Source: a virus (Duplodnaviria; Caudoviricetes). Taken from it: a stretch of DNA of 64,000 nt. Positions 2,788-59,946 of this stretch are shown one piece after another. The DNA lies in the IMG/VR virus record IMGVR_UViG_3300010885_031309; one strand, written 5' to 3'. Under the pieces are notes generated by a model that was not told the origin of the DNA, made no database searches, and was given only the letters and a program-made list of their open reading frames with translations. Position 1 is the stretch's first letter, and each line of letters opens with the position of its first letter. The translations under genes and the position numbers were made by a program.

Positions 2788-5211
2788 ATGGCTAACATCA
2801 GAAAATTAATTGACATTATTAATGAAACCAGTGCAGGTGCAACTTCATCTGGAAGCGTATCGGTAGTTGAGCAACCGTTATTGAAGCAAAGTAGAGTTGA
2901 AACTCCAGAAGCTCCGCAAATACTTGAATATGGAATGTGGGAGAATAGTGTACTTGCGACCAATAAAAAATTAAAAAAGACTCGCACTAAGGCACGTGAT
3001 GTGGTCAAGAAAATATATGGCGAAGACCAACCAGACAAGCAAAGTGTGTCAGAAAACTCAAAAAAAGTAGCAAAGAAAAAGAGCGACGGTATTCTATGGC
3101 GCGTAGAGCAATCAGAAGCAACTCTAAGATATTATGTTGTCAAGGGCCATCAAAACAAAGAATACTGGACCAATAAGCTAGGGGCTTCTGACTTTAATAA
3201 TAAATCTGATGCTGAAGCAAAAGCAAATGAATTGAATAATAAAGTAGATGAAGGATTCAGTGGTGCTGCTGCAGGAGCTATTGGTGGAGCAATTTTTGGA
3301 AAATCGCCACAGGCGGCTGTAACAGGAGCTAATATTGGTAGTAAAGTACAAGACATGTTTTCTAATGAAGATGTGGCGGAAGACAGCTTACAAGAAATAG
3401 GATACGCTGACAGCCTTGATGATGCTAATTATCCAATAGATAGACTTTTAAAAATCGGTAAGTTATACGATACCATTGAGGGCAATAAAGTAATGACTGC
3501 TGCCACGGGATCAGAAAAAGTGTATTTTTTAGTAGTAGATGATCAAGTTACTGCCTTCTTGGGATTCAAAAATAATCATCTAAAAAACATAAAGAATTTT
3601 ACAAAAACTCCGGGCGTTATCAGAGCGCTGATAGGGTGTTTAGTACACAAGCATGGTCAAAAAATCATTATTTCCAATAGTGAACCACTAACATCAGACG
3701 GTAAAAAATGGGTGCTTCATCTGATACAATCCCCGCGGGGGCTAAACATAGTAGATCAAAACGGCAAGCAGATTGATAGCAGATCGCTAAAACAAGAATG
3801 GTTAGAGGCACGAAAAACTAGCATACCTGGACCTACCAGTGTAGTAATTAGCGAGAACTATGAATTTGGTAATAAATTGCGAGAAAATGAATCGTTGAGA
3901 GAAAGCAATTCATTGCTTATGCCATATCAGTTTTACGACACAAAAATTAAAAAGCAAGTTGTGGCGGAAGCTTTAGTTAATGAAATAGGATTTGCAAATG
4001 AATTAGGCAAATTGTCAATGTCTGAACAAGATATTCTGAATAATAGCATCGTTGACGGACAAATAGGACAGCGAGATGTAATGAGATTTGAAATAGACAA
4101 TAATGCATTATACTTTTTTTCTGGAAAAAATAAAATTGAGGCTCTATTATTGTTAGATGGCTCCAGATTAGCAGCAATAAAAAACTTTACTCAAAATAAA
4201 GGTTTAATTCATGGTTTGTTTAATTACGTAGTGAACATGAAGAGAAAAAAATTAAGAATTGATCCTAATGATCAGTTGTCCCCGTACGGAATAGATTGGT
4301 TACTAAAACAGATTGAACGATCAGATGGTATTAAGATCACCGATTTAAATGGAAAATCAATTAATGCTGATGAATTGAGAAATGAATGGAATAAATCTAA
4401 ATCAGATTCTGATCAAGCCCCAGGATCAATCGGTATTATAATCGGTGAATCTGCTATGGGAAAAAGATTACGAGACAATGAACGCTCATTGATGCCATAT
4501 GACATATTTGGGGTCAATAAACATATTAATAAAGAGCAAGATGTGACGGAAGGCTGGAGCAAAAAGTACAAGCGTAGTATTGATTGCTCACATCCTAAAG
4601 GATTTAGTCAACGCGCTCATTGTGCCGGAAAAAAGAAACACAACGAAAGCATTGAAATGGAAATGATTTGCCCAGATTGTAATATGTGCGAAACACATGG
4701 CAACAACATGATGGAAGTCAAACAGCGATTAGATGCAAAATGCTGGGCGGGAAAACACAAAGAAGGAACTAAGATTAAAGGTGGGGTCAGAGTTAATAAC
4801 TGTGTTCCAAACGAAAGCGTTAGTGAAGATGGAATGTCATTCGGTAATATAGCTTCTGCTTCAATTGGTGGTGGAACAAGTAGCGGCACTAGTGATGGCA
4901 CAAAAATGTTTTTGGAAACAGAAAATGAGCCTAAAGTTAGACGATACAAAGATAACTTTGGACAAGATCATTGGGAAGTTTTAGACTGGAAGGGTCATCG
5001 CGTAATAAGTTTTACTAATCGTTCAGCGGCGCACGAATATCTAAAAAAGAATTTGTATCGTTTAATTGATACTGAAGAATTAGAAGAGGGTGAAAACAAA
5101 CGCATCAAGGGTGGCGACCCATGCAGAAAAAACTATCAAATGGTAGGCATGAAGCAAAAAAACGGTAGATCAGTTCCTAACTGCGTACCAGTATCAAAAA
5201 AGAAAAAGTAA
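2788..5211 (+). CDS. Modular polyprotein with leader, glycine zipper, two tandem GNAT-like domains and Cys-rich mini-modules
   Basis: Start moved to MANIRKLIDIINE, downstream of the late promoter. Duplicated domain of about 180 aa (EIGYAD..MPYQFY / EIGFAN..MPYDIF). Linkers EDVAED, QVVAEA, QDVTEG. Confidence 0.75.
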   Translation: MANIRKLIDIINETSAGATSSGSVSVVEQPLLKQSRVETPEAPQILEYGMWENSVLATNKKLKKTRTKARDVVKKIYGEDQPDKQSVSENSKKVAKKKSDGILWRVEQSEATLRYYVVKGHQNKEYWTNKLGASDFNNKSDAEAKANELNNKVDEGFSGAAAGAIGGAIFGKSPQAAVTGANIGSKVQDMFSNEDVAEDSLQEIGYADSLDDANYPIDRLLKIGKLYDTIEGNKVMTAATGSEKVYFLVVDDQVTAFLGFKNNHLKNIKNFTKTPGVIRALIGCLVHKHGQKIIISNSEPLTSDGKKWVLHLIQSPRGLNIVDQNGKQIDSRSLKQEWLEARKTSIPGPTSVVISENYEFGNKLRENESLRESNSLLMPYQFYDTKIKKQVVAEALVNEIGFANELGKLSMSEQDILNNSIVDGQIGQRDVMRFEIDNNALYFFSGKNKIEALLLLDGSRLAAIKNFTQNKGLIHGLFNYVVNMKRKKLRIDPNDQLSPYGIDWLLKQIERSDGIKITDLNGKSINADELRNEWNKSKSDSDQAPGSIGIIIGESAMGKRLRDNERSLMPYDIFGVNKHINKEQDVTEGWSKKYKRSIDCSHPKGFSQRAHCAGKKKHNESIEMEMICPDCNMCETHGNNMMEVKQRLDAKCWAGKHKEGTKIKGGVRVNNCVPNESVSEDGMSFGNIASASIGGGTSSGTSDGTKMFLETENEPKVRRYKDNFGQDHWEVLDWKGHRVISFTNRSAAHEYLKKNLYRLIDTEELEEGENKRIKGGDPCRKNYQMVGMKQKNGRSVPNCVPVSKKKK

Positions 5212-5230
5212 AAATATAACAAGACTGATC

Positions 5231-5611
5231 ATGCGAGCTAAAGAATTTATATTAGAATCCAACAGTGTTGTTAAAATAAAACAGCGACTTCCTAAAAATG
5301 CAGAGTCTGCAATGACGGGTGCTCATAGAGTTGCCGGAACTCTAGATCGCACATACGACTTGAACAGAATTATGATGTTATTGGCTGGGACAGATGGTAA
5401 AAATCATACACACGCTTCTCCTCAAAGCTGGGCTGGAAAAAATAATACTGCACATCCATATACCGTAGAAGAACTAAAAATGCTTAAACATGTATATGCT
5501 CTTGCAAATATAGAATGGGATGATGTTATTGCACAAAATTCCTCTAATAAAAGCACTGAACTAGATGACACGAATAAGCGTAGTCCAGTTAACTCATTTA
5601 AGGGATATTAA
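5231..5611 (+). CDS. Hypothetical protein with MRAKEFILE leader
   Basis: ORF with the leader motif shared across the window. Confidence 0.75.
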   Translation: MRAKEFILESNSVVKIKQRLPKNAESAMTGAHRVAGTLDRTYDLNRIMMLLAGTDGKNHTHASPQSWAGKNNTAHPYTVEELKMLKHVYALANIEWDDVIAQNSSNKSTELDDTNKRSPVNSFKGY

Positions 5612-5658
5612 TGTTACGCAGTGTTAAATGCAGATAGCATTTTGATAAATACTATATT

Positions 5659-6078
5659 ATGAAAACAGCAGAAATAGTATTACAAGAAAATGTTACGAGT
5701 GTTACATGGGCAATAACTTATTTCTCAGAATCTGAATTAAGAAAACCTGCGCTTAGAAGAGTAATAAGTTCAAAGGGTGGATTTGTAACACCAGATGCAG
5801 CGGAAGAATGGGCCAAGACTAACAGAGTTGAGATACAAACACTATACAAAGAGCGTAAAAAGCCAACACAAGAAGCAATAAACCCAAATAATAGAATGGA
5901 TGACATTCCAACAACTACTACGTATATGCTGTATAAAAATACGGGTAATACATGGACTCCAGTTGCAAGATATCAAAGTGAAGCTGAAGCAAGACAGGTT
6001 GGACAAGAGATGATGCAAGAACTTGGCGGTAAGTTCAAAGTTAAAAAAATACAGTATCCTGTAACTAAATATGAATGA
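5659..6078 (+). CDS. Hypothetical two-module protein with MKTAEIVLQE leader
   Basis: ATAAATA at 5645; internal KPTQEA junction. Confidence 0.7.
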   Translation: MKTAEIVLQENVTSVTWAITYFSESELRKPALRRVISSKGGFVTPDAAEEWAKTNRVEIQTLYKERKKPTQEAINPNNRMDDIPTTTTYMLYKNTGNTWTPVARYQSEAEARQVGQEMMQELGGKFKVKKIQYPVTKYE

Positions 6079-6188
6079 TGTAAAATGCTGGTGCTTCTCT
6101 TTAGCATTAGAGTGGTTGGGTGTTGCTGTCTCGCGAACTACACTTTTATATATTATTTTTCTGATAAATACTTAAAATTGGAGTTATT

Positions 6189-6629
6189 ATGTTAGCCGAC
6201 ACGCTCAAAGTTATGTACGCTTCCACCTTTGTCTATTTCGTGAAATCGTTTGGATTTCATCATAATATTGAGGGTGAAAATTTCCCACAATACCATGAAT
6301 TTTTAAAAAACATCTATGAAGATGCACAAGATACATTAGATCCTCTTGCCGAATTAATTCGTCAATTAGATAGCTATACTCCTGGCAGTATTGCTCGTTT
6401 CTCTGAATTAAGTCAAATATCAGATCAAACAAAGATCCCACGGGCTGAATTAATGATGGCAGAATTATTCCAAGACAACCAGAAGTTGCTAGAAATGTGG
6501 AAGGCAGCATTCCCGCTAGCTGAAGAAGCAAATGAGCAAGGTATTGCTGATTTTATTGCCGGCAGAATTGATGCACATGGCAAGTGGGGTTGGCAACTAC
6601 GCAGCATTATGAAAAAGGAAAGAGCGTGA
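6189..6629 (+). CDS. dps: Dps/ferritin-like protein
   Basis: FHHNIEGENFPQYHEFLKNIYE, DPLAELIRQL, HGKWGWQLRS; four-helix ferritin pattern. Confidence 0.85.
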   Translation: MLADTLKVMYASTFVYFVKSFGFHHNIEGENFPQYHEFLKNIYEDAQDTLDPLAELIRQLDSYTPGSIARFSELSQISDQTKIPRAELMMAELFQDNQKLLEMWKAAFPLAEEANEQGIADFIAGRIDAHGKWGWQLRSIMKKERA

Positions 6630-7429
6630 AGATACGAGATTTATTAGAGAGTAAAATTCTAGTAGAAGGAGTACATGATCCCGCTATATTTAAGGCTGTG
6701 TTTGTAATTGGCGGCCCAGGTAGTGGTAAGAGTAAAGTTAGTGAATTATTGGCATTAAAATCGTTGGGTTTTGTTACTGTTAATAGCGACGAGGCGTTTT
6801 CTCACTTACTAACAAAACACGGTCTTAGTCTAAAAATGCCCCCAGAGGAAGAAACACAGCGTAGCGTTATGCGATCCCGTGCAAAAGAGATAACAGCTAA
6901 TAAAATGCAGCTTGCTCTTGACGGAAGATTGGGTGTTGTAATTGACGGAACAGGTGAAGATTACAGAAAAATAGCTGCAATTCATACAAACTTGAAAGAA
7001 ATGGGATATGAAAGTTTTTTGATCATAGTATATGCGAGTTTGGAAACAGCACTGCGTAGAAATGCAAAACGAGAGCGTAGTGTTCCAGAAACAATTGTTG
7101 AGAAAAAATGGCGCGGCGTACAAGAAAATTTGGATGAATTTTTGTTGACTTTTGAACACAGTACTATCATTGATAACAATGGAAACTTGAATGAATTAAT
7201 TCCACAGACTGAACATGTTTATAAAATGGTTGCACAGTGGTCTAAATCAGAACCCAGTAGTGATGAAGCTCAAACATGGATCAATGATCAGCTTGGTATC
7301 ACTGATGAACCCGACGAATACGATGATGTTGAAGACGACGATATTGAAGACGATGATATTGAAGATGATGAGCATGAAGATGACACTGACAGTGCTGAAG
7401 ATAACGATACTAATACAAAATTAAAATGA
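6626..7429 (+). CDS. Zeta-toxin/AAA_33-like P-loop kinase with leader and acidic tail
   Basis: GTG start overlapping the dps stop; MKIRDLLE leader; GGPGSGKS Walker A, NSDE, IDGTG, RNAKRER. Confidence 0.75.
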   Translation: MKIRDLLESKILVEGVHDPAIFKAVFVIGGPGSGKSKVSELLALKSLGFVTVNSDEAFSHLLTKHGLSLKMPPEEETQRSVMRSRAKEITANKMQLALDGRLGVVIDGTGEDYRKIAAIHTNLKEMGYESFLIIVYASLETALRRNAKRERSVPETIVEKKWRGVQENLDEFLLTFEHSTIIDNNGNLNELIPQTEHVYKMVAQWSKSEPSSDEAQTWINDQLGITDEPDEYDDVEDDDIEDDDIEDDEHEDDTDSAEDNDTNTKLK

Positions 7430-7845
7430 ACCACTGGATGACTTATGTTAAGGCTGCATATGAAGTCATTATGATGGCAGAGTCCAAGTCATCAGTGATT
7501 TTGGATCACGAGACCGAGGCATTTGTAGTTCACACATTTGCCAGATATATGGAACAACCTAATATACCTACTGATGTAATCGCAATCAAAATGATGACTG
7601 CTGTTAGTGAGCGTGGCGAAAAGCAAAAACACGCATTTCAACAAATTGCAGAAGAATGTTTGCTTATAAATGGGTTAGAATTGAATAGTCGTCGCTGGCC
7701 AACTAAAAACTACTACAGCGATATGGGCAAACTAGCACTGGAGCATCGTGCCTGGGTTGACCGTCCTCCAGAATTATTATACGAAAAAATTGCATATCAA
7801 TTTGACAACATCAGCAGAGTGTTGCACTCTATTAGACACGTCTAA
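7426..7845 (+). CDS. Hypothetical protein
   Basis: Coupled ORF, 139 aa. Confidence 0.7.
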   Translation: MNHWMTYVKAAYEVIMMAESKSSVILDHETEAFVVHTFARYMEQPNIPTDVIAIKMMTAVSERGEKQKHAFQQIAEECLLINGLELNSRRWPTKNYYSDMGKLALEHRAWVDRPPELLYEKIAYQFDNISRVLHSIRHV

Positions 7846-7903
7846 TTTACTCGTTCAGTTCTAGTAGAACAACTCAATCTGTGTTTGTGCATAAATACTA
7901 ATT

Positions 7904-8479
7904 ATGCATATATCAGAAGTCACCGAACAAAACACTGTTGATGATATTTCACCAGAGTTGCAACAGTTAATTGATATCGCCGGCAAAACTGGCGATAAGA
8001 TGGCTGCATCTAGCAAATACAAATATCAATTGTTTGTTCCACGCAAAACTGCGGTGTATGAAGACTTCAAGCCAAATGCAGAGCGCTGGACTAGTACCGC
8101 GATAAAACGCGGAGATACATACACTAGCGAGTGGGTAGAATGGTGTCATTTTAACATGCCACGATGGATAGATAATACTGGAACACTCTATCGTATAGAG
8201 CCTGGAGCAAAAATTCTGCACATTGGCAGTGATCGTCGTGCTATTGAGATTGCTAAATTATTCGGTAGACAATACAAAACTAGAAATTACGAACGATTAG
8301 GAAACTATCCGTGGAAAGAGTTAGGACTGTATTTTGATGCCATACATTATCCGGCAAGATTACGTCGTAGATATGACAACATATTGATGAGTTCATGGGA
8401 TGTAGAAAGCACTGCCTGGTATAACACTAACAAACTCACTGTTATTAAACAAGTGCAAGTTAAGGCGCGAGGTTGGTAG
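7904..8479 (+). CDS. Leader-bearing protein, possible ADP-ribosyltransferase-like fold
   Basis: MHISEVTE leader, ATAAATA at 7891; WTS...FDAIH...WDVES pattern. Confidence 0.55.
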   Translation: MHISEVTEQNTVDDISPELQQLIDIAGKTGDKMAASSKYKYQLFVPRKTAVYEDFKPNAERWTSTAIKRGDTYTSEWVEWCHFNMPRWIDNTGTLYRIEPGAKILHIGSDRRAIEIAKLFGRQYKTRNYERLGNYPWKELGLYFDAIHYPARLRRRYDNILMSSWDVESTAWYNTNKLTVIKQVQVKARGW

Positions 8480-8480
8480 T

Positions 8481-10226: not shown

Positions 10227-10240
10227 ACTAAATAGCTATT

Positions 10241-14525: not shown

Positions 14526-14807
14526 ATGTCTGATACCGAAAGTTTTGATACCCCAGTAACCTTTAGCGGTGACCAAAAGAAGAAGCTAACACAGGTAATT
14601 AACGAAGGCATGCAGGTTCTACACGAGGTAGACACTCTAAATGAGGGTCTAAGTGAAACCATTAAGGCAATTGCCGAAGAACTAAACATCAAGTCATCTG
14701 TGCTAAAACGGGCAATCAAAATCGCTCACAAGGCAGAATTTCATAAATCACAAAAAGAACAAGAATTGTTGGAAACCATTCTAACTACGGCTGGAAAAAC
14801 TCTGTAA
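14526..14807 (+). CDS. T4 DsbA-like small dsDNA-binding protein
   Basis: AGGAG then ATG at 14526; IKAIAEELNIKSSVLKRAIKIAHK helical pattern; upstream of DNA polymerase. Confidence 0.5.
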   Translation: MSDTESFDTPVTFSGDQKKKLTQVINEGMQVLHEVDTLNEGLSETIKAIAEELNIKSSVLKRAIKIAHKAEFHKSQKEQELLETILTTAGKTL

Positions 14808-15073
14808 TGAGCAGCAGCATTCAAGCCATTCACGACGACGAAGCTCAATGGGCCTACATTCGTCGTGTGGCAAACATTCCTGAAGTGTCATGGAGTGTTT
14901 ATAGCAGAGAGGCGACCGTTGCAAAACAGGGTTATACTGAACATGTTTATACCGGTAAACAGCTTAAGCTGTATGTCAAGCAACAGTGTGAATTGAATGA
15001 CTTGAAGCAGCGCCATTCCGCTGAATGGAAAGAACTTGCACTACTACTTGATTTGGAGAACAAATACGGATGA
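14807..15073 (+). CDS. Hypothetical protein
   Basis: Coupled ORF overlapping the polymerase start. Confidence 0.6.
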   Translation: MSSSIQAIHDDEAQWAYIRRVANIPEVSWSVYSREATVAKQGYTEHVYTGKQLKLYVKQQCELNDLKQRHSAEWKELALLLDLENKYG

Positions 15074-17268
15074 GTTATGTTGATGCTATTTTTGATCGCG
15101 AACGAGATACTATTCATGTAGTAGAGCGGTCGCACAACGGTCAGCGACTGTATCAACAGTATCCGGCTAACTATGTTTTTTATTATGATGATCCCAAAGG
15201 AAAGTTTCGTAATCTAAATCACGAGCCAGTAAGTCGCTTTAGTACCCGTAAGCGCGGTGAGTTCATAAAAGAACTTAAGATACACAGTGGAAAACGCAAA
15301 TATGAAAGTGATTTGAATCCAGTATTTCGTTGTTTGGCTGATAACTATTTGGATGCCGAACCTCCGAAACTGCACACTGTATTCTTTGACATTGAAACCG
15401 GCTTCAATCCAGATCGCGGGTTCGCACCAATCACTGATCCATTCAATCCAGTGACAGCAATCTCACTGTATTTGGATTGGCTACAGCAATTGGTTACACT
15501 GTGTATTCCTCCGCGACACATGTCATCTGAAACAGCGCAAGAGATAGCATCTCAATTTGAAAACACATTTGTGTTTGACAATGAAGTAGACATGTTCAAT
15601 GTGTTCTTTGACTTGATAGAAGATGCTGATGCTCTTAGTGGCTGGAATAGCAGTGGATACGATATTCCCTACATGGTTAATCGTGTCACGCGAGTTATGA
15701 GCAAAGATGATACGCGAAGATTTTGTTTGTTAAATCAGTTACCAAAGCTACGCAAGTATATTATGTTTGATCAGGAACAGGAAACATATGATTTAAGTGG
15801 CCGAATTCATATGGACTACTTGGAGTTGTATAAGAAATACAATTACGAAAGTCGTCATAGCTACAAGCTGGACTTTATTGGAGAAATGGAAGTTGGCGAG
15901 AAAAAGGTTCAATACGAGGGAACATTGGATCAGTTGTATAACAAGGATTGGAAAAAATTCTTAGAATACAACCGCCAAGACACCTTGTTGTTGTTTAAGA
16001 TCCATGATAAACTAAAGTTCTTGGATCTTGCCAACAGTATTGCTCATCAGAACACAGTGCTATTACAAACCGTAATGGGCAGTGTAGTAATGATTGAGCA
16101 AGCAATTATTAATGAAGCACATGCTCGTGGATTAGTAGTACCAGATAAAAGGAAAATTAATGAAGATACAGAACCAACAGCAGCCGGTGCCTATGTTGCT
16201 ACGCCCAAAAGGGGCATGCACGAGTGGATCGCGGCGGTTGACATCAACAGTCTCTACCCATCGGCTATCCGCGCTCTTAACATGGCACCGGAAACCATCG
16301 TTGGACAACTCAGACCCACTCTTACAGACAAATACATCGCAGACAAATTAGCCACTGGATTAGAATTCGCGCATGCTTGGGAAGGTTTGTTTGGAACACT
16401 AGAGTACTCTAGTGTAATCAACCAAGAGCGTGGAACAATGATTACCATAGATTGGGAGCGTGGTGGTAGCGAAACTGCCAGTGCGGCCGAAATCTGGAAG
16501 TTAATCTTTGACAGCAATCAACCATGGATGTTAAGTGCTAATGGTACTATATTCACTTACGAGCGCGAGGGTATTATTCCTGGATTGCTTACTAAGTGGT
16601 ACACTGAGCGTAAAGAGATTCAAAAGCAACTTAAAGAAGCAAAGAACGAAGAAGAGCGACAGTTTTATGACAAGCGACAACTGGTAAGAAAGATCCTCTT
16701 AAATTCAGCCTACGGAGCACTGCTTAACATTCACTGCCGGTTCTATGATATCAGAATTGGACAAAGCACTACTCTGTGTGGGCGTCAAATCGTAAAACAT
16801 ATGGGCTCTCATTTAAATGAGCAGATTACTGGGAATTACGATCATAATGGCGAAGCTATTATATACGGCGACAGCGTAACTGGAGACACAATTATTAGAA
16901 CAAGTGATGGTGATATGTCTATAGCTGATTTATTTGATCGGTGTATTGAACATGTTAAAGTTGGTGAAAAAGAATATGGAGTATGGAATGAAACTAAAGT
17001 ATTAGGATTCAATTCGGAATATATGGAAAAAATTGCTGCGCCACTAAACTGCGTAATGAGACATAAAACAAAAAAGAAGTTGTATAAAATTACTACTGCT
17101 AACGGAAAAACAGTAACTGTCACTGAAGATCATAGTGTAATGATTGATCGTGATGGATTTTTGATTGAATGTAAACCAACTGAAATTCTAGAAAATGATT
17201 TAATTATTACACTTTCATCAAAAAATTTCTGGAAACAGAACGGCGGCAGAGGTGTGGAAAAAAGATAG
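15070..17268 (+). CDS. Family B DNA polymerase, N-terminal fragment, fused to the N-half of a split intein
   Basis: Exonuclease FFDIET, GWNS.GYDIPY, YN.QD; motif A VDINSLYPS; motif B KILLNSAYG; ends at YGD|S. Confidence 0.95.
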   Translation: MSYVDAIFDRERDTIHVVERSHNGQRLYQQYPANYVFYYDDPKGKFRNLNHEPVSRFSTRKRGEFIKELKIHSGKRKYESDLNPVFRCLADNYLDAEPPKLHTVFFDIETGFNPDRGFAPITDPFNPVTAISLYLDWLQQLVTLCIPPRHMSSETAQEIASQFENTFVFDNEVDMFNVFFDLIEDADALSGWNSSGYDIPYMVNRVTRVMSKDDTRRFCLLNQLPKLRKYIMFDQEQETYDLSGRIHMDYLELYKKYNYESRHSYKLDFIGEMEVGEKKVQYEGTLDQLYNKDWKKFLEYNRQDTLLLFKIHDKLKFLDLANSIAHQNTVLLQTVMGSVVMIEQAIINEAHARGLVVPDKRKINEDTEPTAAGAYVATPKRGMHEWIAAVDINSLYPSAIRALNMAPETIVGQLRPTLTDKYIADKLATGLEFAHAWEGLFGTLEYSSVINQERGTMITIDWERGGSETASAAEIWKLIFDSNQPWMLSANGTIFTYEREGIIPGLLTKWYTERKEIQKQLKEAKNEEERQFYDKRQLVRKILLNSAYGALLNIHCRFYDIRIGQSTTLCGRQIVKHMGSHLNEQITGNYDHNGEAIIYGDSVTGDTIIRTSDGDMSIADLFDRCIEHVKVGEKEYGVWNETKVLGFNSEYMEKIAAPLNCVMRHKTKKKLYKITTANGKTVTVTEDHSVMIDRDGFLIECKPTEILENDLIITLSSKNFWKQNGGRGVEKR
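16873..17268 (+). mobile_element. Split intein N-fragment (Ser1), Pol-c site
   Basis: SVTGDT after YGD; block B TVTEDHSV; HINT-like end KPTEILENDLIITL plus 17 extra residues. Confidence 0.9.
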
Positions 17269-17395
17269 ATTAAAGATTAAAACAGCAGAAAATTATGGAT
17301 TTAGAGTATTAGTTGTATGGGAATCGGATTTTAGAAAAGACAAGAACAAAACAATTGAAAAGGTGACAGAATGGATTGTGAATGGACAAAAGTAA
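17204..17395 (+). pseudogene. C-terminal remnant of a Vsr-like homing endonuclease
   Basis: Alternative frame, no start codon: HFHQKISGNRTAAEVWKKDRLKIKTAENYGFRVLVVWESDFRKDKNKTIEKVTEWIVNGQK*. Confidence 0.75.
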
Positions 17396-17496
17396 GTAAA
17401 ATAGAATGTTTAGGAGAAGTAGATGATTATGTATACGATATAAGTATAGAAGAACAGGATCCGTTCTTTTTTGCTAATGATATTTTAGTACATAAC
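17371..17496 (+). mobile_element. Split intein C-fragment (42 aa, ends HN, +1 Thr)
   Basis: MDCEW...YVYDISIE...FFANDILVHN|TDS; own AAGGTGA ribosome-binding site. Confidence 0.9.
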
Positions 17497-18390
17497 ACCG
17501 ATAGCTGCTATTTCAGTGCATGGCCAACTTTGAGCAAGGATGAAAACTTCATGAAATCTTGGAACAAAGATGTGGCTGTTAATATCTATGATCAACTTGC
17601 AGAAAATACAAATCTCAGCTTTCCAGAATTTATGGAGCGAGCGTTTCATTGTCCGCGAAAGAGTGGAGCGATCATTAAAGCTGGACGAGAGCTAGTAGCA
17701 GATCGTGGTTTGTTTATTACAAAAAAGCGTTATGCCGTTAACATCTATGACAAAGAGGGAGACAGACTTGATTTGTACGATGAGAAGCGGGCAGCAAAAA
17801 AGGGTGTAATATCGGGCATGGGTAAAATCAAGGCAATGGGTCTTGATCTAAAACGCGCCGACACTCCCAAGTATATTCAGAATTTCTTGATGAATGTGTT
17901 GATTGATGTTCTTCGTGGACATGAACGACAAGCGATTGTTGATAAAATTGTTCAGTTCAAAACAGAATTAGAGAAGCAACCAAGTTGGACCATGGGAAGT
18001 CCCAAGGGCGTTAACAAGCTAACCTGGTATGGCGAACAGCAGGAAAAATCCGATAAAAAGATAAACATGCCCGGGCATGTTCGTGCTAGCTTAAATTGGA
18101 ATTATCTAAGAACACTCAATAACGATAATCACAGTCAAAAAATTGTAGATGGTATGAAAATAGTTGTGTGCAAGCTAAAAGACAATCTATTGGGAATGAC
18201 TAGCATAGCATATCCAACAGATGAATTGCGATTGCCACAGTGGTTCTTAGAATTGCCATTTGACGATAAAGACATGATTAATACATTGGTTGATGAAAAG
18301 ATTAATAATCTTATTGGAGTGTTAAATTGGAAAATTTCCAACGACATTAACATCAACAGTACATTTAACAGCTTGTTTACATTCAGTTAA
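17371..18390 (+). CDS. Family B DNA polymerase, C-terminal fragment, fused to the intein C-half
   Basis: TDSCYF completes YGDTDS; KKRYAV, KAMGLDLKRADTP. Confidence 0.95.
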   Translation: MDCEWTKVSKIECLGEVDDYVYDISIEEQDPFFFANDILVHNTDSCYFSAWPTLSKDENFMKSWNKDVAVNIYDQLAENTNLSFPEFMERAFHCPRKSGAIIKAGRELVADRGLFITKKRYAVNIYDKEGDRLDLYDEKRAAKKGVISGMGKIKAMGLDLKRADTPKYIQNFLMNVLIDVLRGHERQAIVDKIVQFKTELEKQPSWTMGSPKGVNKLTWYGEQQEKSDKKINMPGHVRASLNWNYLRTLNNDNHSQKIVDGMKIVVCKLKDNLLGMTSIAYPTDELRLPQWFLELPFDDKDMINTLVDEKINNLIGVLNWKISNDININSTFNSLFTFS

Positions 18391-20572: not shown

Positions 20573-21607
20573 GTGACTATAAAGCGTATTGGATTTGCTT
20601 GTAAATGGATTGATCGTCCAGATCAATGTGACGGCATCAAGCCAAAGGACGATTGTGCAAAGTACAACACTGGCACAACTACTCGTGCTTGGCTAAATCG
20701 TCAATCTCGTGGTGTGGCTGAAGACAAGTTGTGGTCTTTAATGAAAGACAATATTGAGTCAATCAGACTACTTGTTCAGCGTGTTGGTACACTGGAACCT
20801 TCTCTGCGAATGGTTCGTCTGTCATCTGAGATTTTGCCCTTGTATACTGAAGCAGACTGGAAATATTTTTATCGTCAGTCTGATGTTGTCAGTTACATGG
20901 AACGACATTTTGCTACTGTTGGAGAAATTGCACGCGCAAACGATGTTCGTCTTAGTTTTCACCCAGGGCAATTTACCGTTATTGCCAGCGAAAATGAAGG
21001 CATTGTTCAAAACAGTCTAGCAGAATTAGAGTATCATACCGATATGATGCGTTGGATGGGATATGGTAATAACCTTCTTGAGACTAAAATAAATGTGCAT
21101 CTTAGTGGAAAGCTAGGAGTAAATGGATTCGATGCGGCATGGAATCGTATGAGTCCGGAATTGCGTAATATGCTAACCTTAGAGAACGATGAATTTCAGG
21201 CTGGACTTGATGCAGTGTTACAATTGAAACATAAAGTCGGGGTGGTGCTCGATCTACATCATCATTGGATTAACACGGGAGAATACATCAATGCAAATGA
21301 CTCGCGTATTAAAGAAGTTATTGAAAGCTGGTGTCGTGACGGCGGTAATCGGAGACCCACCATTCATTACAGTGTTAGTCGCGAAGATGTTCTTGACGAA
21401 CATTCTATTGATCAACAGCCGTTTCGTGACGCACTGATAGAATCTGGGCATAAAAAGGCAAAACTTCGTGCTCACAGTGATCGCATGTGGAATATCGCGA
21501 CAAATAAGTGGGCACGACAGCATTGGGAATGGGCCGATTGTATGATAGAAGCAAAAATGAAGAATATCGCCAGCAAAGAATTGTTTGAGCAATGGTCTAA
21601 GACTTAG
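20573..21607 (+). CDS. uvsE: UV-damage endonuclease UvsE/UvdE
   Basis: RIGFAC, RLSSEILP, RLSFHPGQF, LTLENDE, LDLHHH, HYS, AHSD, MIEAKMK. Confidence 0.92.
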   Translation: MTIKRIGFACKWIDRPDQCDGIKPKDDCAKYNTGTTTRAWLNRQSRGVAEDKLWSLMKDNIESIRLLVQRVGTLEPSLRMVRLSSEILPLYTEADWKYFYRQSDVVSYMERHFATVGEIARANDVRLSFHPGQFTVIASENEGIVQNSLAELEYHTDMMRWMGYGNNLLETKINVHLSGKLGVNGFDAAWNRMSPELRNMLTLENDEFQAGLDAVLQLKHKVGVVLDLHHHWINTGEYINANDSRIKEVIESWCRDGGNRRPTIHYSVSREDVLDEHSIDQQPFRDALIESGHKKAKLRAHSDRMWNIATNKWARQHWEWADCMIEAKMKNIASKELFEQWSKT

Positions 21608-44130: not shown

Positions 44131-44418
44131 ATGCCATTATTCGTAGTTGAAACAATTCAAACATTTCGCCATCGGTATGTAGTAGAATGCAAGTCATTGG
44201 ATCATGCGTATGATACAGTGGCAATGGAGGAGGCAGATGAATTTAGTCAAATGCATCTAGGTGAACAGATCGTCACTGGTCGTGAGATTACTCAGGAACA
44301 ATTTCATGCTATGAACGAATCACTGAAAATTCACGGTGACGGAACACATTATCGGCCAGAACGTGGCAGTCCATGGATGGGTGAAAAGATGATTCACGTG
44401 GTAGAGTATGATCAATGA
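44131..44418 (+). CDS. Hypothetical protein
   Basis: VVETIQTFRHRYVV...EFSQMHLGE.I. Confidence 0.7.
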   Translation: MPLFVVETIQTFRHRYVVECKSLDHAYDTVAMEEADEFSQMHLGEQIVTGREITQEQFHAMNESLKIHGDGTHYRPERGSPWMGEKMIHVVEYDQ

Positions 44419-51565: not shown

Positions 51566-51592
51566 TAAATATTAGATACGGGAGTAATTATC

Positions 51593-53146: not shown

Positions 53147-53147
53147 C

Positions 53148-53194: not shown

Positions 53195-53206
53195 ATTACA
53201 CTTACT

Positions 53207-53773: not shown

Positions 53774-53781
53774 ATATTATC

Positions 53782-53958
53782 ATGACCACAAACGAAGAAA
53801 AAATTACATACGAAGTAACTACAGTTGAAGATCCAGAAACTGGAGATATTTTACTTCCATTTCCACCAGAACTTTTAGAAAAGTTGAACTGGAAAGAGGG
53901 CGACGAGATTAATTGGAATCAGTCAGATGACGGTGCTTGGATTTTAACAAAAAAATAA
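53782..53958 (+). CDS. AbrB/MazE-like DNA-binding protein
   Basis: GDILLPFPPELLEKLNWKEGDEINW; TATAAATA at 53769. Confidence 0.7.
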   Translation: MTTNEEKITYEVTTVEDPETGDILLPFPPELLEKLNWKEGDEINWNQSDDGAWILTKK

Positions 53959-53959
53959 T

Positions 53960-54406: not shown

Positions 54407-54431
54407 CAATAAATCTTCGGTATGATAGACT
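54403..54431 (+). promoter_or_regulatory. Sigma70-type promoter
   Basis: TTGACA-17 nt-TAGACT. Confidence 0.65.
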
Positions 54432-54462
54432 ATAAAGATAGTAACAACACTATTTCAACAAC

Positions 54463-54843
54463 ATGAGTTTAGTTAAGGGTCTTACTCTTTCTGGCAAGAA
54501 ACGCGGCAAAGTTAAATTTGCAAGTGCAGAGGCAAAACGACAATACGAGCAATTGCAAAAAGATTGGGCCGATCTAAAAACTAAATGGGGCGTCACTGAC
54601 ACTTCCAAGCGTAAAACTACAGTGGTTGAATTGCCAACTATTGCCAAGTCACAAATTCGTGATAGTGCAAACGGCAAGCCAAAATCACTAAATTCTTGGG
54701 TTGTCGGTCCAGCGGCAAAAAAAGAAAGTAAGCAGTATACTGGAAACAAAATGGTAGGCATTGGAACTCTTCATAAGAGCAATGCCGTACCAGTGTTTTC
54801 TGATCAGGAGGCAAAGGAAATCGCTACAATGCGACGAAACTAA
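54463..54843 (+). CDS. Hypothetical phage protein
   Basis: [19 protein letters not shown]...A.EIA.MRR. Confidence 0.75.
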
Positions 54844-54845
54844 TT

Positions 54846-55064
54846 ATGGCAAAAACAGACACTATTAAACTTGAAGGTACCGTGGTAGACTTACTACCGA
54901 ACGCAATGTTTCGCGTAAAGCTACTTGAAAATGAACAAGTAATCATTGGGCACATCAGCGGGCGAATTCGTCAAAACGAAATTCGTATTCTACTTGGTGA
55001 TGCTGTTCAAATGGAATTTAGTCCATATGACTTAACTAAAGGTCGCATAGTCAAGCGACTGTGA
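54846..55064 (+). CDS. infA: Translation initiation factor IF-1
   Basis: [18 protein letters not shown]...HISGRIR...[19 protein letters not shown]. Confidence 0.93.
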
Positions 55065-55093
55065 TTATCTCTTACAGCATGATAAATACATGC

Positions 55094-55654
55094 ATGAGAG
55101 AAATTATTAATTTGGTTGAAAGTAAATCTCAGTCAAAAGATGAGATTGAAATAGTAAATCTTTCTTATTCGTCTAGTGCTCTTAGTCCAGTATTTTCATC
55201 ATCTCTGATGAAGCTGCACTACGAAAAGCTAGCTCATGGGTATGCAGAAAGATTTAATAAAAAAGAGGGTGACCCAACCTTCAATTATGCTGGCGCCTGG
55301 CTGCATAATGTGTTCTTTACGCAATTCAGACCTTCGCGTATGAACAATGTTCCCAACGGTCCAATTGGGAATATGATAAAAACCAAATTCAAAAGCTTTG
55401 ACGCATTCAAAGATGCATTTGAGCAAGAAGCCATGAAGCTACATGGCAGCGGATGGTTATACTTGGCTCGCGATGCTAGTATTAAAAGTATAAATAATCA
55501 TCAAGTCCGTAATGATATTCTAATCTTGGTAGACATGTGGGAACATGCTTATCAGCATGATTATGGTTCTAATAAACAAAAATATCTGGATAATATCTGG
55601 AAAATAATGGACTGGAATGTGTTGAACACAAGATGGGGACAGGGATACAAATGA
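55094..55654 (+). CDS. sod: Fe/Mn superoxide dismutase with an MREIINLVE leader
   Basis: LHYEKLAHGY, LHNVFF, GSGW, DMWEHAY; start moved downstream of ATAAATA at 55082. Confidence 0.88.
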   Translation: MREIINLVESKSQSKDEIEIVNLSYSSSALSPVFSSSLMKLHYEKLAHGYAERFNKKEGDPTFNYAGAWLHNVFFTQFRPSRMNNVPNGPIGNMIKTKFKSFDAFKDAFEQEAMKLHGSGWLYLARDASIKSINNHQVRNDILILVDMWEHAYQHDYGSNKQKYLDNIWKIMDWNVLNTRWGQGYK

Positions 55655-56205
55655 AAGCCCACGAGTTCTTAACTGAAATTGGTTCATTTAATTACAAGTT
55701 CAAAGAAGAGCCATATTACTTAGAAGACAACAAGAATTGGCAAAGAATACTATTCAATATTGCGAACAAAGTGGCTAGCTATTTTTCCAGACCTGTAGCT
55801 GGTAAAAAATATACATTCAGCACTGACAGTGGTGCGAAATACGAGGTGTATTTGGATCTATATATGAAATCGGGTCTAAACATACGATTTTTTTATGTTA
55901 ATCGTAGTGGAATCAGATTGCACAAACTTACTGGAACTGCTGCTGGAGAAGAGTTGAGAATCATAAGCACAGTAAGACAAATAGCAAAAAAATACATAGA
56001 CGAAGTACATCCGTCTGTTATAGCCTTTAGTGCCGTTGAATTAAAAGAAACATCCAGATTCAGCTTGTATGACAGAATTGCTAGAGATTTTAGCAGATAT
56101 TTTCCAGAATACAAGTTTCGCTCTAGTAAAGACACTCAACACGGAAAGACTTGGTTTTTTGGAAGAACAGAAAATTATGACAATACAGCTAACACAAGAA
56201 GCTAA
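55651..56205 (+). CDS. GNAT-like protein with an MKAHEFLTE leader
   Basis: TGTAAGEELRIISTV...FSA...SRFSLY; same domain as the middle of 8481-10226. Confidence 0.65.
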   Translation: MKAHEFLTEIGSFNYKFKEEPYYLEDNKNWQRILFNIANKVASYFSRPVAGKKYTFSTDSGAKYEVYLDLYMKSGLNIRFFYVNRSGIRLHKLTGTAAGEELRIISTVRQIAKKYIDEVHPSVIAFSAVELKETSRFSLYDRIARDFSRYFPEYKFRSSKDTQHGKTWFFGRTENYDNTANTRS

Positions 56206-56506
56206 ACTAAAAATCATAGACATACTAGCCACTACTGATGAAAACACTAGACTTCGTATTGCTGTAGTGGGCGGTGGTTGTGCTGGGCTAAATTATCATT
56301 TTGTACTGGACGAAGATTATAGTGAAGATGACTTTCTAATTGATTCTGGACCGGCACGAGTAGTAGTAGATTCTGTTAGCGCTCAATACCTAGAACAAGC
56401 GACAGTTGACTATGTAGACGAACTATGGGAAAAAAAGTTTGTTGTTGATAATCCAAATGCCGAAGTAAGTTGTGGATGTGGTAGCAGTTTTCGTCCGAAA
56501 ACTTAA
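56177..56506 (+). CDS. IscA/HesB/ErpA Fe-S cluster assembly protein
   Basis: LRIAVVGGGCAGLNY...VDY...NPNA...CGCGSSF. Confidence 0.92.
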   Translation: MTIQLTQEAKLKIIDILATTDENTRLRIAVVGGGCAGLNYHFVLDEDYSEDDFLIDSGPARVVVDSVSAQYLEQATVDYVDELWEKKFVVDNPNAEVSCGCGSSFRPKT

Positions 56507-56704
56507 TTATTCTTTTTTGTTGATTTTTGTAATTTCAGAGTAGGTTACAATTTTTCCGTTACTCAAAAGATATTTTGAACCTTCAACAGCAGTGACACTA
56601 CATGATTGTCCTTTATATTGTACAGTGTCACCAGCTTTAATTGGATTCTGACTATATGATTTATAGCTGTTATAGCCCTCAACAAGCACTTCGTGTATTT
56701 TCAT
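56507..56704 (-). CDS. Small SH3/KOW-like protein with an MKIHEVLVE leader
   Basis: IKAGDTVQYKG..C.VTAV. Confidence 0.65.
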   Translation of the reverse strand: MKIHEVLVEGYNSYKSYSQNPIKAGDTVQYKGQSCSVTAVEGSKYLLSNGKIVTYSEITKINKKE

Positions 56705-57975
56705 GATTCATCCATTTTAGTATTAAACCAGGGATCAACTATTACCAGTGTACCATCTTTGCGTTCCATGACATTTTCGGTATGTAGATCCCAGCCCTGT
56801 TTATCTAGCTTTCCACGCTTGTATAATAATCTCATCATTGAATAAAGAATATCAAACTTTACATAAGTCATTGCATCCAGGGACTTTAATTTTTTGATTA
56901 ATTCTTTATCAGTCGGCGGAGCATCCCAATGCTTCCATGTAGTTGGCTTTAACATTTCCGTGTAGGCTTGTTCCCAAGTCTTATCTTTTGCAGCTAGATC
57001 ACTCATCATCCATACTAGTGCTTGACTAAAACTACCGTCTTTTAATGGGCGTAGTCGTTCCATGCCAATCATAGTAAATTCGCGATTGTCTGCTTCAAAA
57101 GTAGCGTGATGGCCATCCTTTGTAATTTGTACAAACTTTGGTAGATTTGGTTGATCACTATTTTTCATACAGAATTCATAAAATAGCTTGAATGTTTTAA
57201 CTGCACCACTCATACTATCACGATCTTCTGGCATAATAATTTTGATAACGCTCTCGTCGTCTTTTGCCCAGACTGTTGCTTCAGCGCCACTTCCTAATTT
57301 TTTGTATCCCATTTCCTTGAATACTTTGTTTATTTCTTTTGATGCTTTGGTTCTAGTTTCTGCTTCGCTGATTAAATCAGAATTATTCAATAATTTTACT
57401 GATCCGTTATCGTTGACAAAGTATGGAAAGAATTTAATATCCGGATATTCTTGCTTTAATTTTGAAAATACACGAAGATTGGTCATGCTATCATCATACA
57501 TACTAACACGATAGTAGCGACCAGTATCTAAATATCGTCTGACAAATACTGCTTTTCTTTCTGCTGGTGTAGTTGGTTGTTCTAAATTTCCAGCACGATG
57601 TACATGTACGCGACTCATATCTATACCATACTTGGCAAAAGTTTGTAGAAATGTGTCGCGATCATCAAAATCACTACGAGCAGTAAGCATTATGATTTTA
57701 CAATTGGTTGCTACTTTAAGTATTGCTTTTAGTTTAGCTATCATTGGTCTGATAGGCTCACTCTCACGATTGAATTTTTCTGCGTTACGAAATTCTCCAA
57801 AATCAAACTGTTCATCTGGTTCTGGTTGATATGTATTGTATTCTTTATTGGTAAGACTACGAACTACTTTACCATTTTTGATGACATTTATTTTAGCCGT
57901 AGTATGAAACAGCGTGTCATCTATATCCATGATTATTAGATGTTCAGACTTTGAGTTTATATCTCTAATTCTCAT
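56701..57975 (-). CDS. HAD-superfamily phosphatase fused to a protein-kinase-like domain
   Basis: DIDDTL, LTARS, YDDS..NL; LGSGAEATV..VIKI...DLHTENVM..VIVDP; junction LISEAE. Confidence 0.8.
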   Translation of the reverse strand: MRIRDINSKSEHLIIMDIDDTLFHTTAKINVIKNGKVVRSLTNKEYNTYQPEPDEQFDFGEFRNAEKFNRESEPIRPMIAKLKAILKVATNCKIIMLTARSDFDDRDTFLQTFAKYGIDMSRVHVHRAGNLEQPTTPAERKAVFVRRYLDTGRYYRVSMYDDSMTNLRVFSKLKQEYPDIKFFPYFVNDNGSVKLLNNSDLISEAETRTKASKEINKVFKEMGYKKLGSGAEATVWAKDDESVIKIIMPEDRDSMSGAVKTFKLFYEFCMKNSDQPNLPKFVQITKDGHHATFEADNREFTMIGMERLRPLKDGSFSQALVWMMSDLAAKDKTWEQAYTEMLKPTTWKHWDAPPTDKELIKKLKSLDAMTYVKFDILYSMMRLLYKRGKLDKQGWDLHTENVMERKDGTLVIVDPWFNTKMDES

Positions 57976-58090
57976 ACAGTATTCTATTACATTTAGTAGT
58001 AGGACTGACCGTTTGCCATAATGCTACGCAATCCCTTGGCTAAATCCGGTAGATAGGACGCGTGATATACGTAAATAATTTCATTTATTT

Positions 58091-58501
58091 TCATTGTTCA
58101 TCCAATAGCATTATAGGATCGCCACCGGCATCTCCTATTATTTCAAACCCATAATTTTTATACCAATCAACGATACTGAACTCATTACTTTCATGTACAT
58201 CAGCAATTAACAGTATCGCTTCAGCACCCCTGTCATATGAATCATCTATAGCATTATTTAGCAGATTGCTACCTAAACCCTGCCCTCTTGAATCATCATC
58301 AATATACATGTTCTTAATAATACTTATTCTGCCAAATTTACTAGCGATATTGTTTATCAGTTGTTCAGATGCACCTTGAGATTCTAAGTAATTTTTCAAT
58401 TGTGACTTATCAGTGTCTACCACGTAACCCTCAAGTGCACCACCATCAATACTTTTTGATATCATTTGTATAGATTCGATTAGTAATTCTTTGATCTTCA
58501 T
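58091..58501 (-). CDS. GNAT acetyltransferase with an MKIKELLIE leader
   Basis: MYIDDDSRGQGLGSNLL...WYKNYGF. Confidence 0.85.
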   Translation of the reverse strand: MKIKELLIESIQMISKSIDGGALEGYVVDTDKSQLKNYLESQGASEQLINNIASKFGRISIIKNMYIDDDSRGQGLGSNLLNNAIDDSYDRGAEAILLIADVHESNEFSIVDWYKNYGFEIIGDAGGDPIMLLDEQ

Positions 58502-58503
58502 AA

Positions 58504-59946
58504 TTACATCACAAATATTTTACCAACGCTGTCACTCAACACATCATTGAACAACAATTCCATTGTATATGCTAAACGTTCGGCTTTTTGCTTTCTTGAA
58601 AGTTCATCACGATATTCAGGTTTAATGTTTAGATATTTTGTAGGTGTTCCCCATGCTTGTCTTCCGTAACCTAAATTAGTTGGTAATAGATTAAACGTGA
58701 CTTTGCCTGTGCCTAAATATTGTGCAAATATTTCATATAAGAATTCATATGGACGTTTAATCTGATTACTTCTACTACTACGTTGTGTGCCTAATGCATT
58801 GAACAGTGCATTATACTCGGGGGTCAAATCCCACTTGATTAGAGTATTGTATGTGTTTGCACCCCTATATGCTTTGCCATAGTGTTCTTCTAACACTGAA
58901 TTTACAGTTTCAAAGAAATACTTTTCTGCTTCAGCCCAAGCCTTCCAATTCTTGTTTTCATATGCAGCCTCTGCCCCTATAGCGTGTCCAAATCTATGTG
59001 CCATCATCCATGGCGTAAGCATTACTTTACTATCACCCTTGTTGCCCACATACACTACAGTTATAGCATCTTCACTGCCATTGATAATTTCTTCAGCCTG
59101 TTCTTTACCAAAAATTTGCATAATCTGCTCTGGGGGCATTGCACCGTATTCACTATACTTCCCAGTGCCGGGCACGTTACTAAAGAATAAACGGAAATCG
59201 TAGGGTGTTTTTTCAAAGAATGTAGTAGCTTTTTCTATGTTCTTGGGATGTGGCACAAGGTTTTTATCTGCTCCGCGAAATGGTCCTGGCTTAGTAAAGT
59301 CACCAAACGGTTGATACTTGGCTAATGCCATTTCACCTACTGTGTCTTCCGCCACGCCTTGGTTTGGTCTGCTTAATGTATGCTTTTCTGTTCTATAATC
59401 GTATGTAGCACCTAACTTCTTATATATTTCTCTTGCTGCGTTGTTATGGTCTTGATCAGAAATGATATTGTAGTGCTTGGACAATCCTTTTAGAAAGTCA
59501 GTGTAAATGCCTTTGCCTCTTAACTTTTCATCAAAGACTTCAGAGTATTGAACTTCAACCGTATCGTTGTAAACATCGGCCCAAACACCTAATACTGTTT
59601 TACCTTTACTGTCTTTCACTCTAATAAAGGTGTTTGCTTCAGCGCCAGATTTCCAGGGTACTTCGTCACCGGGTTCAAATGACCATGTGTAGCCCGATGG
59701 TGTTTTGCCGCTGACAGATTCCGTAACATCTTGCTTGTCAAGTTTCTCTAAACGATGTATCTCATCGGCAACCTGTGTCCAATAACGATATTGTGGAGTA
59801 TTACTTTCATAACTCATGGCATGGTCGTTGGCACGTTGAGCAGCAGTATAGGAATGATCTTTATACCGATCATACATTCGTTTTGCCGTTGACTTTACTT
59901 CTAAGTCACTGGAATTATTTTCAACAATAAAATCATTTGCTCTCAT
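58504..59946 (-). CDS. Polyprotein: small helical module + GNAT + HRxGH zincin-like domain
   Basis: MRANDFIVE leader; linkers QDVTES and QGVAED; RGKGIY..A..IY.KLG; WMMAHRFGHA. Confidence 0.8.
   Translation of the reverse strand: MRANDFIVENNSSDLEVKSTAKRMYDRYKDHSYTAAQRANDHAMSYESNTPQYRYWTQVADEIHRLEKLDKQDVTESVSGKTPSGYTWSFEPGDEVPWKSGAEANTFIRVKDSKGKTVLGVWADVYNDTVEVQYSEVFDEKLRGKGIYTDFLKGLSKHYNIISDQDHNNAAREIYKKLGATYDYRTEKHTLSRPNQGVAEDTVGEMALAKYQPFGDFTKPGPFRGADKNLVPHPKNIEKATTFFEKTPYDFRLFFSNVPGTGKYSEYGAMPPEQIMQIFGKEQAEEIINGSEDAITVVYVGNKGDSKVMLTPWMMAHRFGHAIGAEAAYENKNWKAWAEAEKYFFETVNSVLEEHYGKAYRGANTYNTLIKWDLTPEYNALFNALGTQRSSRSNQIKRPYEFLYEIFAQYLGTGKVTFNLLPTNLGYGRQAWGTPTKYLNIKPEYRDELSRKQKAERLAYTMELLFNDVLSDSVGKIFVM

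Follow-up and report, generated by a model that had tools for sequence, protein, structure and literature searches.

An 18-nucleotide in-frame linker with conserved silent sites borders exchanged modules in the polyprotein genes of a large novel phage

Two polyprotein genes of IMG/VR virus record IMGVR_UViG_3300010885_031309 (Duplodnaviria; Caudoviricetes), analysed here as a stretch of 64,000 nucleotides (the window), are divided into modules by five copies of a short peptide linker that is conserved at the DNA level. The linkers belong to a family of 18-nucleotide (nt) sequences, CAAGGTGTGGCGGAAGGC in consensus form, whose silent positions are fixed, which are restricted to polyprotein linkers and which coincide with the breakpoints of module exchange between related phages. 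We consider it moderately probable that the linker is a protease site doubling as a short-homology, in-frame recombination junction. An initial annotation of the window had already proposed a crossover signal for the in-frame swapping of modules, and this core inference is supported by the persistence of the codon bias in more copies and by the mapping of breakpoints. The comparison drew on hundreds of related phage contigs (labels beginning with L, P or G), and five large linker-carrying relatives, three of them at least 97% complete, were screened for protein families.

The five linkers were confirmed, with their codons and in frame, where the annotation had placed them (Table 1). They are assigned to module boundaries, again as proposed, because homology to relatives begins and ends there; homology of module A1, for example, starts immediately 3' of linker 1. 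The preference of this genome for A/T-ending codons is also real, since in about 100 called genes GTG accounts for 16% of the valine, GCG for 12% of the alanine and ACG for 8.5% of the threonine codons. The same genes hold 14 in-frame V-[A/T]-E tripeptides, and an NCG codon is used in 5/5 linkers versus 0/9 of the other sites. The sequence GTGRCGGAA occurs in frame four times in the window against 0.17 expected, a count reached by none of 1000 codon shuffles in which synonymous codons were permuted among all genes with every protein and the codon pool kept. One additional GTGACGGAA lies at 44336, out of frame. A look-alike, CGTGGTGTGGCTGAAGAC (R-G-V-A-E-D), is found at 20708-20725 on the plus strand near the start of an endonuclease-like open reading frame (ORF); its four mismatches are chance level in shuffled sequence.

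With more copies the synonymous bias becomes overwhelming, in a peptide census of 25 sites as well as in more than 400 contexts. The polyproteins of relatives are rich in K-Q-G-V-A-E-G, and in the DNA of six of them this peptide is almost always written CAA GGT GTG GCG GAA GGC; their non-linker V-[A/T]-E sites have ordinary codons. The census avoided any bias towards the DNA motif, being made on the peptide only in loci found via protein similarity, and yielded 25 non-duplicate G-V-A-E-G sites. Valine was GTG in 23/25 (background 17%), alanine GCG in 20/25 (9%), the first glycine GGT in 23/25 (40%) and the second glycine GGC in 20/25 (26%), and GCG was used at 0/12 other V-A-E sites. A DNA search allowing at most four mismatches to the 18-mer returned 77 copies in 228 kb versus none in shuffled sequence. 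Every one of them occupies a long ORF in frame and in the sense orientation, and the mismatches are distributed over all three codon positions, so that third positions are conserved like first and second ones. Variant linkers are one-base neighbours that retain the other rare bases (threonine ACG, methionine ATG, aspartate GAT, serine TCG and glutamate as the rare GAG), and the five copies of the window belong to this class. In 413 linkers with distinct flanks, every one in frame, the conserved DNA is confined to the 18-mer and two upstream A's, the flanks being random. The exact 18-mer is present in at least 120 IMG/VR stretches, compared with none for the reversed control and 12 for the same peptide in its commonest codons.

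The motif is also sparse. Near-complete relatives of 340-374 kb contain only 1-7 copies each, clustered in a few genes; an ORF may carry up to nine linkers, and the median module has 84 amino acids. In the head core, protease, scaffold and capsid genes of three relatives, 28 candidate [LIVM]-[A/T]-E sites, among them the likely capsid maturation site (H/M-L-A-E|N), use NCG in 1/28 and GTG in 0/28 cases. A protease motif as such can therefore do without the linker codons. The 56 matches to the 18-mer in 596 Gb of prokaryotic genomes are mostly due to chance in high-GC genomes, besides a few small contigs of metagenome-assembled genomes (MAGs) which look like binned phage. One of these (L215, CAILDT010000116.1), of 8.9 kb and binned with a freshwater Bacteroidetes MAG, has three exact linkers in 900 nt at 108-977; it is probably a phage contig and gives a very weak hint of the host. 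At about 14700-14720 of the close relative L028 a linker reads K-Q-D-V-T-K, glutamate having become lysine by one base change with the remaining DNA motif kept, and this copy is probably uncleavable.

Exchanges between relatives coincide with the motif, as the annotation implied, at cassette edges, segment ends, junction pairs and in a second strain. Positions 3952-4555 of the window, comprising module A2 and both its linkers, are 98.3% identical at the DNA level to L028 10559-11162 (604 nt). Identity is at random level on both flanks in the same register; it starts at AAGCAAG.TGTGGCGGAAG and stops after GTG.CGGAAGGCT, inside the linkers, and outside A2 the alignment of both genes drops to about 72% or is lost. 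The middle module of polyprotein gene 2 (59721-59346) is 91.5% identical over 376 nt to positions 4935-5310 of L020, where it sits in a different polyprotein with unrelated neighbours and has its boundaries at linkers. This identity begins in the last codons of linker 4 and ends just past GGAAG of linker 5. When 155 loci were compared all-versus-all, 131 of the 259 internal ends of segments with at least 88% identity lay no more than 10 nt from a linker, where 5.6 would be expected at random and 200 randomisations gave 14 at most. Among 429 non-redundant junctions 151 pairs are alike (at least 70% identity) on one 60-nt flank only and 2 pairs on both, so neighbour relations are lost faster than the sequence diverges. 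Only four junction pairs are conserved on both sides at 60-97% flank identity, and this scarcity indicates a rapid turnover. About eight polyprotein ORFs stop 0-6 residues past a linker, which suggests that a module and its 3' linker act as one unit. Moreover, identical non-consensus bases recur in different linkers of one contig in 117 pairs versus 88 ± 9 in permutations, none of 1000 reaching 117.

The sequencing runs containing the window phage (X1-X4) are freshwater metagenomes, and run X4 holds a strain about 99% identical to it at a depth of about 32. Depth over A2 is 0.89, which denotes a strain without this module. The X4 contigs end at 3970 and resume at 4547, within linkers 2 and 3, and one contig joins 3970 to 4533. 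Assembly chimeras are an unlikely source of the mosaic because linkers 2 and 3 are spanned, with no difference from the window, by Logan contigs of three other runs and because the repeat is shorter than the assembler word length, which is 31. The same strain has about 2 kb of additional DNA at 2760-2766, in the late-promoter-like motif upstream of polyprotein gene 1, and 416 different bases replacing 6084-6603. Shuffling may therefore use the promoter motif as another kind of junction, resembling the promoter and stem-loop cassettes (PeSLs) of T4-type phages that are compared below.

We propose that the polyprotein would enter the prohead via an N-terminal capsid-targeting leader. The linker peptide, [K/E]-Q-G-V-A-E-G, would be a hydrophobic-x-Glu site cut after Glu by a prohead protease of the T4 gp21 type, and the window linkers would be one-base variants of this clade peptide, such as Q-D-V-T-E-G. 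Cleavage at the linkers would release modules of about 50-230 residues, which would accompany the DNA into the host. The linker DNA would at the same time be a phase-0 short homology common to such genes in the freshwater T4-like jumbo-phage gene pool. The general recombination machinery, probably a RecA-family (T4 UvsX-type) recombinase, would cross over inside the 18-mer, and any module could thus be inserted, deleted or swapped in frame with the cleavage sites kept. Modules whose flanking linkers are near the consensus would transfer more often, a fast arms race would sustain the turnover and the silent positions would thereby be fixed. Crossing-over within the 18-mer and this reason for the upkeep of its silent sites are what we infer from the pattern, as is a motif that causes the exchanges and does not merely mark where viable ones survive.

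The proteins that such a scheme would employ were found in the relatives. RecA-family (T4 UvsX family) matches were obtained in four of the five large relatives, Peptidase_S77 (the gp21 family) over the cut-off in three and a gp23-type capsid protein in three. The leader of T4 is MKTYQEFIAE. Internal proteins of T4 bear a capsid-targeting propeptide of 10-20 residues which is removed by the gp21 prohead protease, and head proteases of the T4 family cleave after Glu (PMC3012670, PMC5694885). The reading of the linker as a Glu cleavage site fits the T4-like leaders of the window and the predicted gp21-family protease of its relatives. Gene 2 supports this indirectly. Its C-terminal module stands behind a leader in relatives (MRASEFLIE|APLTDYQTMGDF...) and behind a linker in the window (QGVAEDTVGE|MALAKYQPFGDF...), and the equivalent position of leader and linker argues for the removal of both by one protease. 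The homologues of this module, at 23 IMG/VR loci and with 57-74% identity, are similar from residues 212-216 onwards.

Several observations weigh against a protease site that is also a recombination junction. The five window copies are degenerate, with 2-6 mismatches to the consensus. At the left boundary of the cassette at 59 kb the linker pair differs at about 6 of 18 bases between both genomes, so good homology is not visible at every junction. The X4 contig skips 3970-4533, that is 562 nt, which is no multiple of three, and the skip may be a replacement and not a clean deletion. Neither the S77 protease nor gp23 was identified among the window ORFs scanned, the protease being known from relatives, and proteolytic cleavage and packaging into the capsid are predicted from sequence. 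Breakpoints at linkers would also be expected if exchange occurred anywhere and only in-frame products respecting the boundaries survived. In addition, 18 bases are short for efficient homologous recombination, and selection on transferability is a second-order argument for the upkeep of silent sites.

The silent positions might also be fixed by an RNA-level or translational cause such as a ribosome pause that rare or G-rich codons induce at domain boundaries, an anti-Shine-Dalgarno-like AAGGTG or a two-tetrad G-quadruplex (GG-TGT-GG-C-GG-AA-GG), breakpoints then falling at linkers only because selection keeps in-frame, domain-respecting chimeras. The consensus is indeed G-rich with rare codons, GTG and GCG are precisely the codons that make four GG runs in GGT GTG GCG GAA GGC, and every copy is in frame and in the sense orientation. 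Nevertheless, rarity alone leaves the choice of GTG over the rarer GTC and of GCG over the equally rare GCC unexplained, and a pause at the linker would precede the exit of the upstream module from the ribosome tunnel. The quadruplex was rejected: it fits the clade consensus but does not need the fixed T at position 6 and C at position 18, and it fails for the V-T-E variants and all five window copies, which have neither the four G runs nor AAGGTG and yet keep GTG-RCG-GAA-G. With no conserved flanking structure in the 413 contexts, and with the near-absence of conserved adjacency left unexplained, a cause of this kind accounts for some of the conserved bases only and appears unlikely. A mere accident, in which the window copies are alike through tandem duplication of a domain and its linker plus chance, could draw on the tandem paralogues A1 and A2, which give linkers 2 and 3 a shared ancestry, and on the choice of the five copies after the fact. 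However, the same rare-codon DNA is found across many genomes in over 400 contexts that are unrelated to one another, and both the rejected codon-shuffled null and the database-wide controls agree with this; the explanation by accident is extremely improbable and effectively refuted.

A further possibility is that the 18-mer is the target of a dedicated phage-encoded nuclease, nickase or annealase which triggers cassette exchange; this would amount to a programmed, integron-like system within one ORF. The conserved core has sharp limits, like a protein recognition site, neighbour turnover is extreme and the motif contains a direct repeat, CAAGG...GAAGG, with a spacing of about one helical turn. 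This has to be set against a motif without a palindrome, the lack of any identified candidate enzyme and the consideration that a site cut by the phage's own nuclease is normally selected against. Tyrosine (PF00589) and serine (PF00239) recombinases are absent from all five large relatives, control genomes being positive. As a mechanism, therefore, the integron or shufflon to which the initial annotation had likened the linker is not supported: with no tyrosine or serine recombinase in these relatives and with direct, non-palindromic repeats, general recombination on short homology is more likely. We regard a dedicated enzyme as quite unlikely, and give equally little credence to the wider idea that a phage factor recognising CAAGGTGTGGCGGAAGGC drives programmed in-frame cassette exchange among capsid-delivered effector polyproteins across the jumbo-phage gene pool.

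Narrower explanations of the linker codons were rejected as well. A general preference for the codon pair GCG-GAA is ruled out by the absence of NCG (0/9) and GCG (0/12) from the non-linker sites given above. If the linker held an internal start codon (GTG or ATG), AAGG as its ribosome-binding site would be only about 1 nt away; methionine is the commonest alternative to valine in the linkers, which is explained by its being a transition neighbour. No conserved slippery heptamer was found that would make the linker a frameshift site.

The positions of the linkers, modules, leaders and promoter-like motifs are collected in Table 1.

Table 1. Features of the two polyprotein genes and of the leader-bearing genes in the window
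Feature	Position	Strand	Remarks
Late-promoter-like GATAAATACT	2758..2767	+	T4-like; 20 nt upstream of the polyprotein start
Polyprotein gene 1	2788..5211	+	807 aa; leader, N-terminal modules, tandem A1 and A2 (~190 aa each), Cys-rich C-terminal part
Capsid-targeting-like leader MANIRKLIDIINE	2788..2826	+	Ends I-N-E; relatives begin alike, e.g. P0004 MSDIRKLINIISE
Linker 1	3367..3384	+	E-D-V-A-E-D, GAA GAT GTG GCG GAA GAC, GAAGATGTGGCGGAAGAC; three mismatches to the clade consensus
Module A1	3385..3954	+	Paralogue of A2; ~73% DNA identity to an A1-like module in L028
Linker 2	3955..3972	+	Q-V-V-A-E-A, CAA GTT GTG GCG GAA GCT, CAAGTTGTGGCGGAAGCT; left breakpoint of the A2 cassette
Module A2, mobile cassette	3973..4536	+	Near-identical copy in L028; GNAT-like predicted fold
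Linker 3	4537..4554	+	Q-D-V-T-E-G, CAA GAT GTG ACG GAA GGC, CAAGATGTGACGGAAGGC; right breakpoint of the A2 cassette
C-terminal Cys-rich modules (WSKKYKRSIDCSHPKGFSQRAHC and following)	4555..5211	+	Conserved in cyanophage and IMG/VR proteins
Polyprotein gene 2	58504..59946	-	480 aa from the leader ATG at 59946
Capsid-targeting-like leader MRANDFIVE	59920..59946	-	Leader type that also heads relatives' stand-alone homologues of the C-terminal module
Linker 4	59716..59733	-	Q-D-V-T-E-S, CAA GAT GTT ACG GAA TCT, CAAGATGTTACGGAATCT; most degenerate copy
Middle module, mobile cassette with R-G-K-G motif	59362..59715	-	91.5% DNA identity to the L020 segment
Linker 5	59344..59361	-	Q-G-V-A-E-D, CAA GGC GTG GCG GAA GAC, CAAGGCGTGGCGGAAGAC
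C-terminal module, ~280 aa	58507..59343	-	Stand-alone protein directly behind the leader in most relatives
Leader-bearing gene starts	5231, 5659, 7904, 8481, 10241, 12781, 13558, 24580, 55651	+	
Leader-bearing gene starts	56704, 57975, 58501, 59946, 60883, 62461	-	
ATAAATACTA motifs	~2758-2767, 5644-5654, 7890-7900 (+); ~62482-62491 (-)		No obvious Shine-Dalgarno sequence

Homologues of gene 1 are mosaic polyproteins of 450-1400 amino acids that match only 23-60% of its length; the contigs bearing them reach 570 kb. The order of modules in P0004 differs from that in gene 1, and the WRVEQSEAT module common to gene 1 and the L028 gene lies at a different place in each protein. An apparent stand-alone A1-like gene in L028 (14250-15107) proved to be an artefact of a run of N within another leader-bearing polyprotein. 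Searches of Pfam and PHROGs with both polyproteins gave no informative domains. Structure matches in the Atlas to viral GNAT clusters (TM 0.60-0.67) offer a lead only to a GNAT-like fold of A2, and the Atlas features of the C-terminal module of gene 2, which resemble zincin/ATLF-type peptidases, are likewise a lead only. The residues behind the leader of gene 1 (2827-2870; TSAGATSSGSV) are similar to the mature N-terminus predicted for the gp23-type capsid protein in relatives (NATAGATSAGNV; L155-L157), and an ORF of 117 amino acids in G001 matches the first 30 positions of the Gp23 model. A second hydrophobic-x-E site follows five residues after three of the linkers: DSLQE at 3385-3399 and ALVNE at 3973-3987 on the plus strand, and DTVGE at 59343-59329 on the minus strand, the V-G-E site past linker 5. 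They could mark a double cut that frees a pentapeptide or be what is left of an earlier leader.

At least 15 window genes, both polyprotein genes included, start with M-[R/K]-x-x-[E/D]-[F/I/L/V]-[I/L/V]-x-E, for example MRANDFIVE, MKTKEIISE and MRAKEFILE. Kinase-like, polynucleotide-kinase-like, amidoligase/GGCT-like and deaminase-like enzymes are among them, and their leader sequences suggest that a very large set of enzymes may be delivered by the capsid. The motif ATAAATACTA, which resembles the T4 late promoter TATAAATA, precedes several leader-bearing genes by 3-20 nt, and the late mRNAs may be leaderless or nearly so. The leaders of two adjacent genes (59946-59927 and 60883-60864, minus strand) have identical first 20 bases (ATGAGAGCAAATGATTTTAT), and leader DNA may itself be a homology for gene shuffling.

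The source of the window, with a G+C content of 37%, is a large novel phage. The INPHARED phage collection holds no close relatives of the window, and only the Cys-rich motif matches cyanophages. Its replication genes are T4-like; among them, the family-B DNA polymerase is split between two successive ORFs (15070-17268 and 17371-18390, plus strand).

If the linker does act as we propose, it would be a standard connector for injected cargo in which one short sequence secures the reading frame, proteolytic release and exchangeability, and it would explain how large phages renew their anti-host arsenals quickly. By means of the 18-mer, thousands of capsid-delivered effector modules that are so far uncharacterised could then be catalogued in metagenomes, and it would be a clear natural case of silent sites held by recombination and not by translation. 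It would also suggest how foreign proteins might be packed into T4-type capsids, as strings that can be cleaved.

Capsid-targeting leaders and Glu-specific maturation in T4, mosaic polyvalent proteins and motif-mediated shuffling are already known. The combination of an 18-nt in-frame junction, a putative protease site, silent-site fixation and hundreds of module contexts appears to be undescribed, and a full-text literature search for GVAEG found no phage paper. Shufflons and integrons also have repeated short sites that permit the rearrangement of cassettes, but they depend on a dedicated tyrosine recombinase and on sites that are inverted or structured. The five relatives showed no such recombinase, and the linker consensus has no dyad symmetry. 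In polymorphic toxins the VENN (CdiA) and PxxxxDPxGL (Rhs) motifs separate a constant part from exchangeable modules and are thought to give homology for cassette replacement. Those systems swap one C-terminal toxin together with its immunity gene in bacterial chromosomes, whereas the present motif, a putative protease site, stands on either side of many internal modules. Polyvalent proteins of phages and conjugative elements comprise 2-15 effector domains, are delivered with the invading DNA and are mosaic (Iyer et al. 2017, PMC5512222). The polypeptides described here are likewise multi-domain and mosaic, with a domain repertoire that is largely unannotated; in the text of that paper the word 'linker' is absent and 'prohead' occurs only in the reference list, no conserved inter-domain linker or head-protease site being described.

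The closest parallels come from T4 and its relatives. The internal proteins of T4 (IPI-III, Alt; PMC3012670, PMC5694885) share with the present genes M-K-T-x-x-E-[F/I]-[I/V]-x-E-type leaders on many unrelated late genes, a Glu-specific S77 protease (here in relatives) and a diverse, fast-evolving cargo. Each of them has one leader, whereas here several modules stand behind a single leader and are separated by internal sites with fixed DNA. T4-type phages are reported to shuffle intergenic PeSL promoter-terminator cassettes by way of short motifs (PMC2839356, PMC4122927), and conserved motifs have a like role in the genes of their tail-fibre adhesins (PMC3157838; Tetart et al. 1998, as cited therein). 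As in our case, short DNA motifs border insertions, deletions and replacements between close relatives and general recombination is invoked. PeSLs, however, are intergenic and consist of an early promoter and a terminator stem-loop, whereas the present motif lies inside ORFs, in frame and without a stem-loop. In the adhesins the motifs belong to the structure of one domain, whereas the 18-nt phase-0 linker joins unrelated domains and encodes a putative protease site. Compared with both, the linker described here has a silent-site fixation that is documented over hundreds of contexts.

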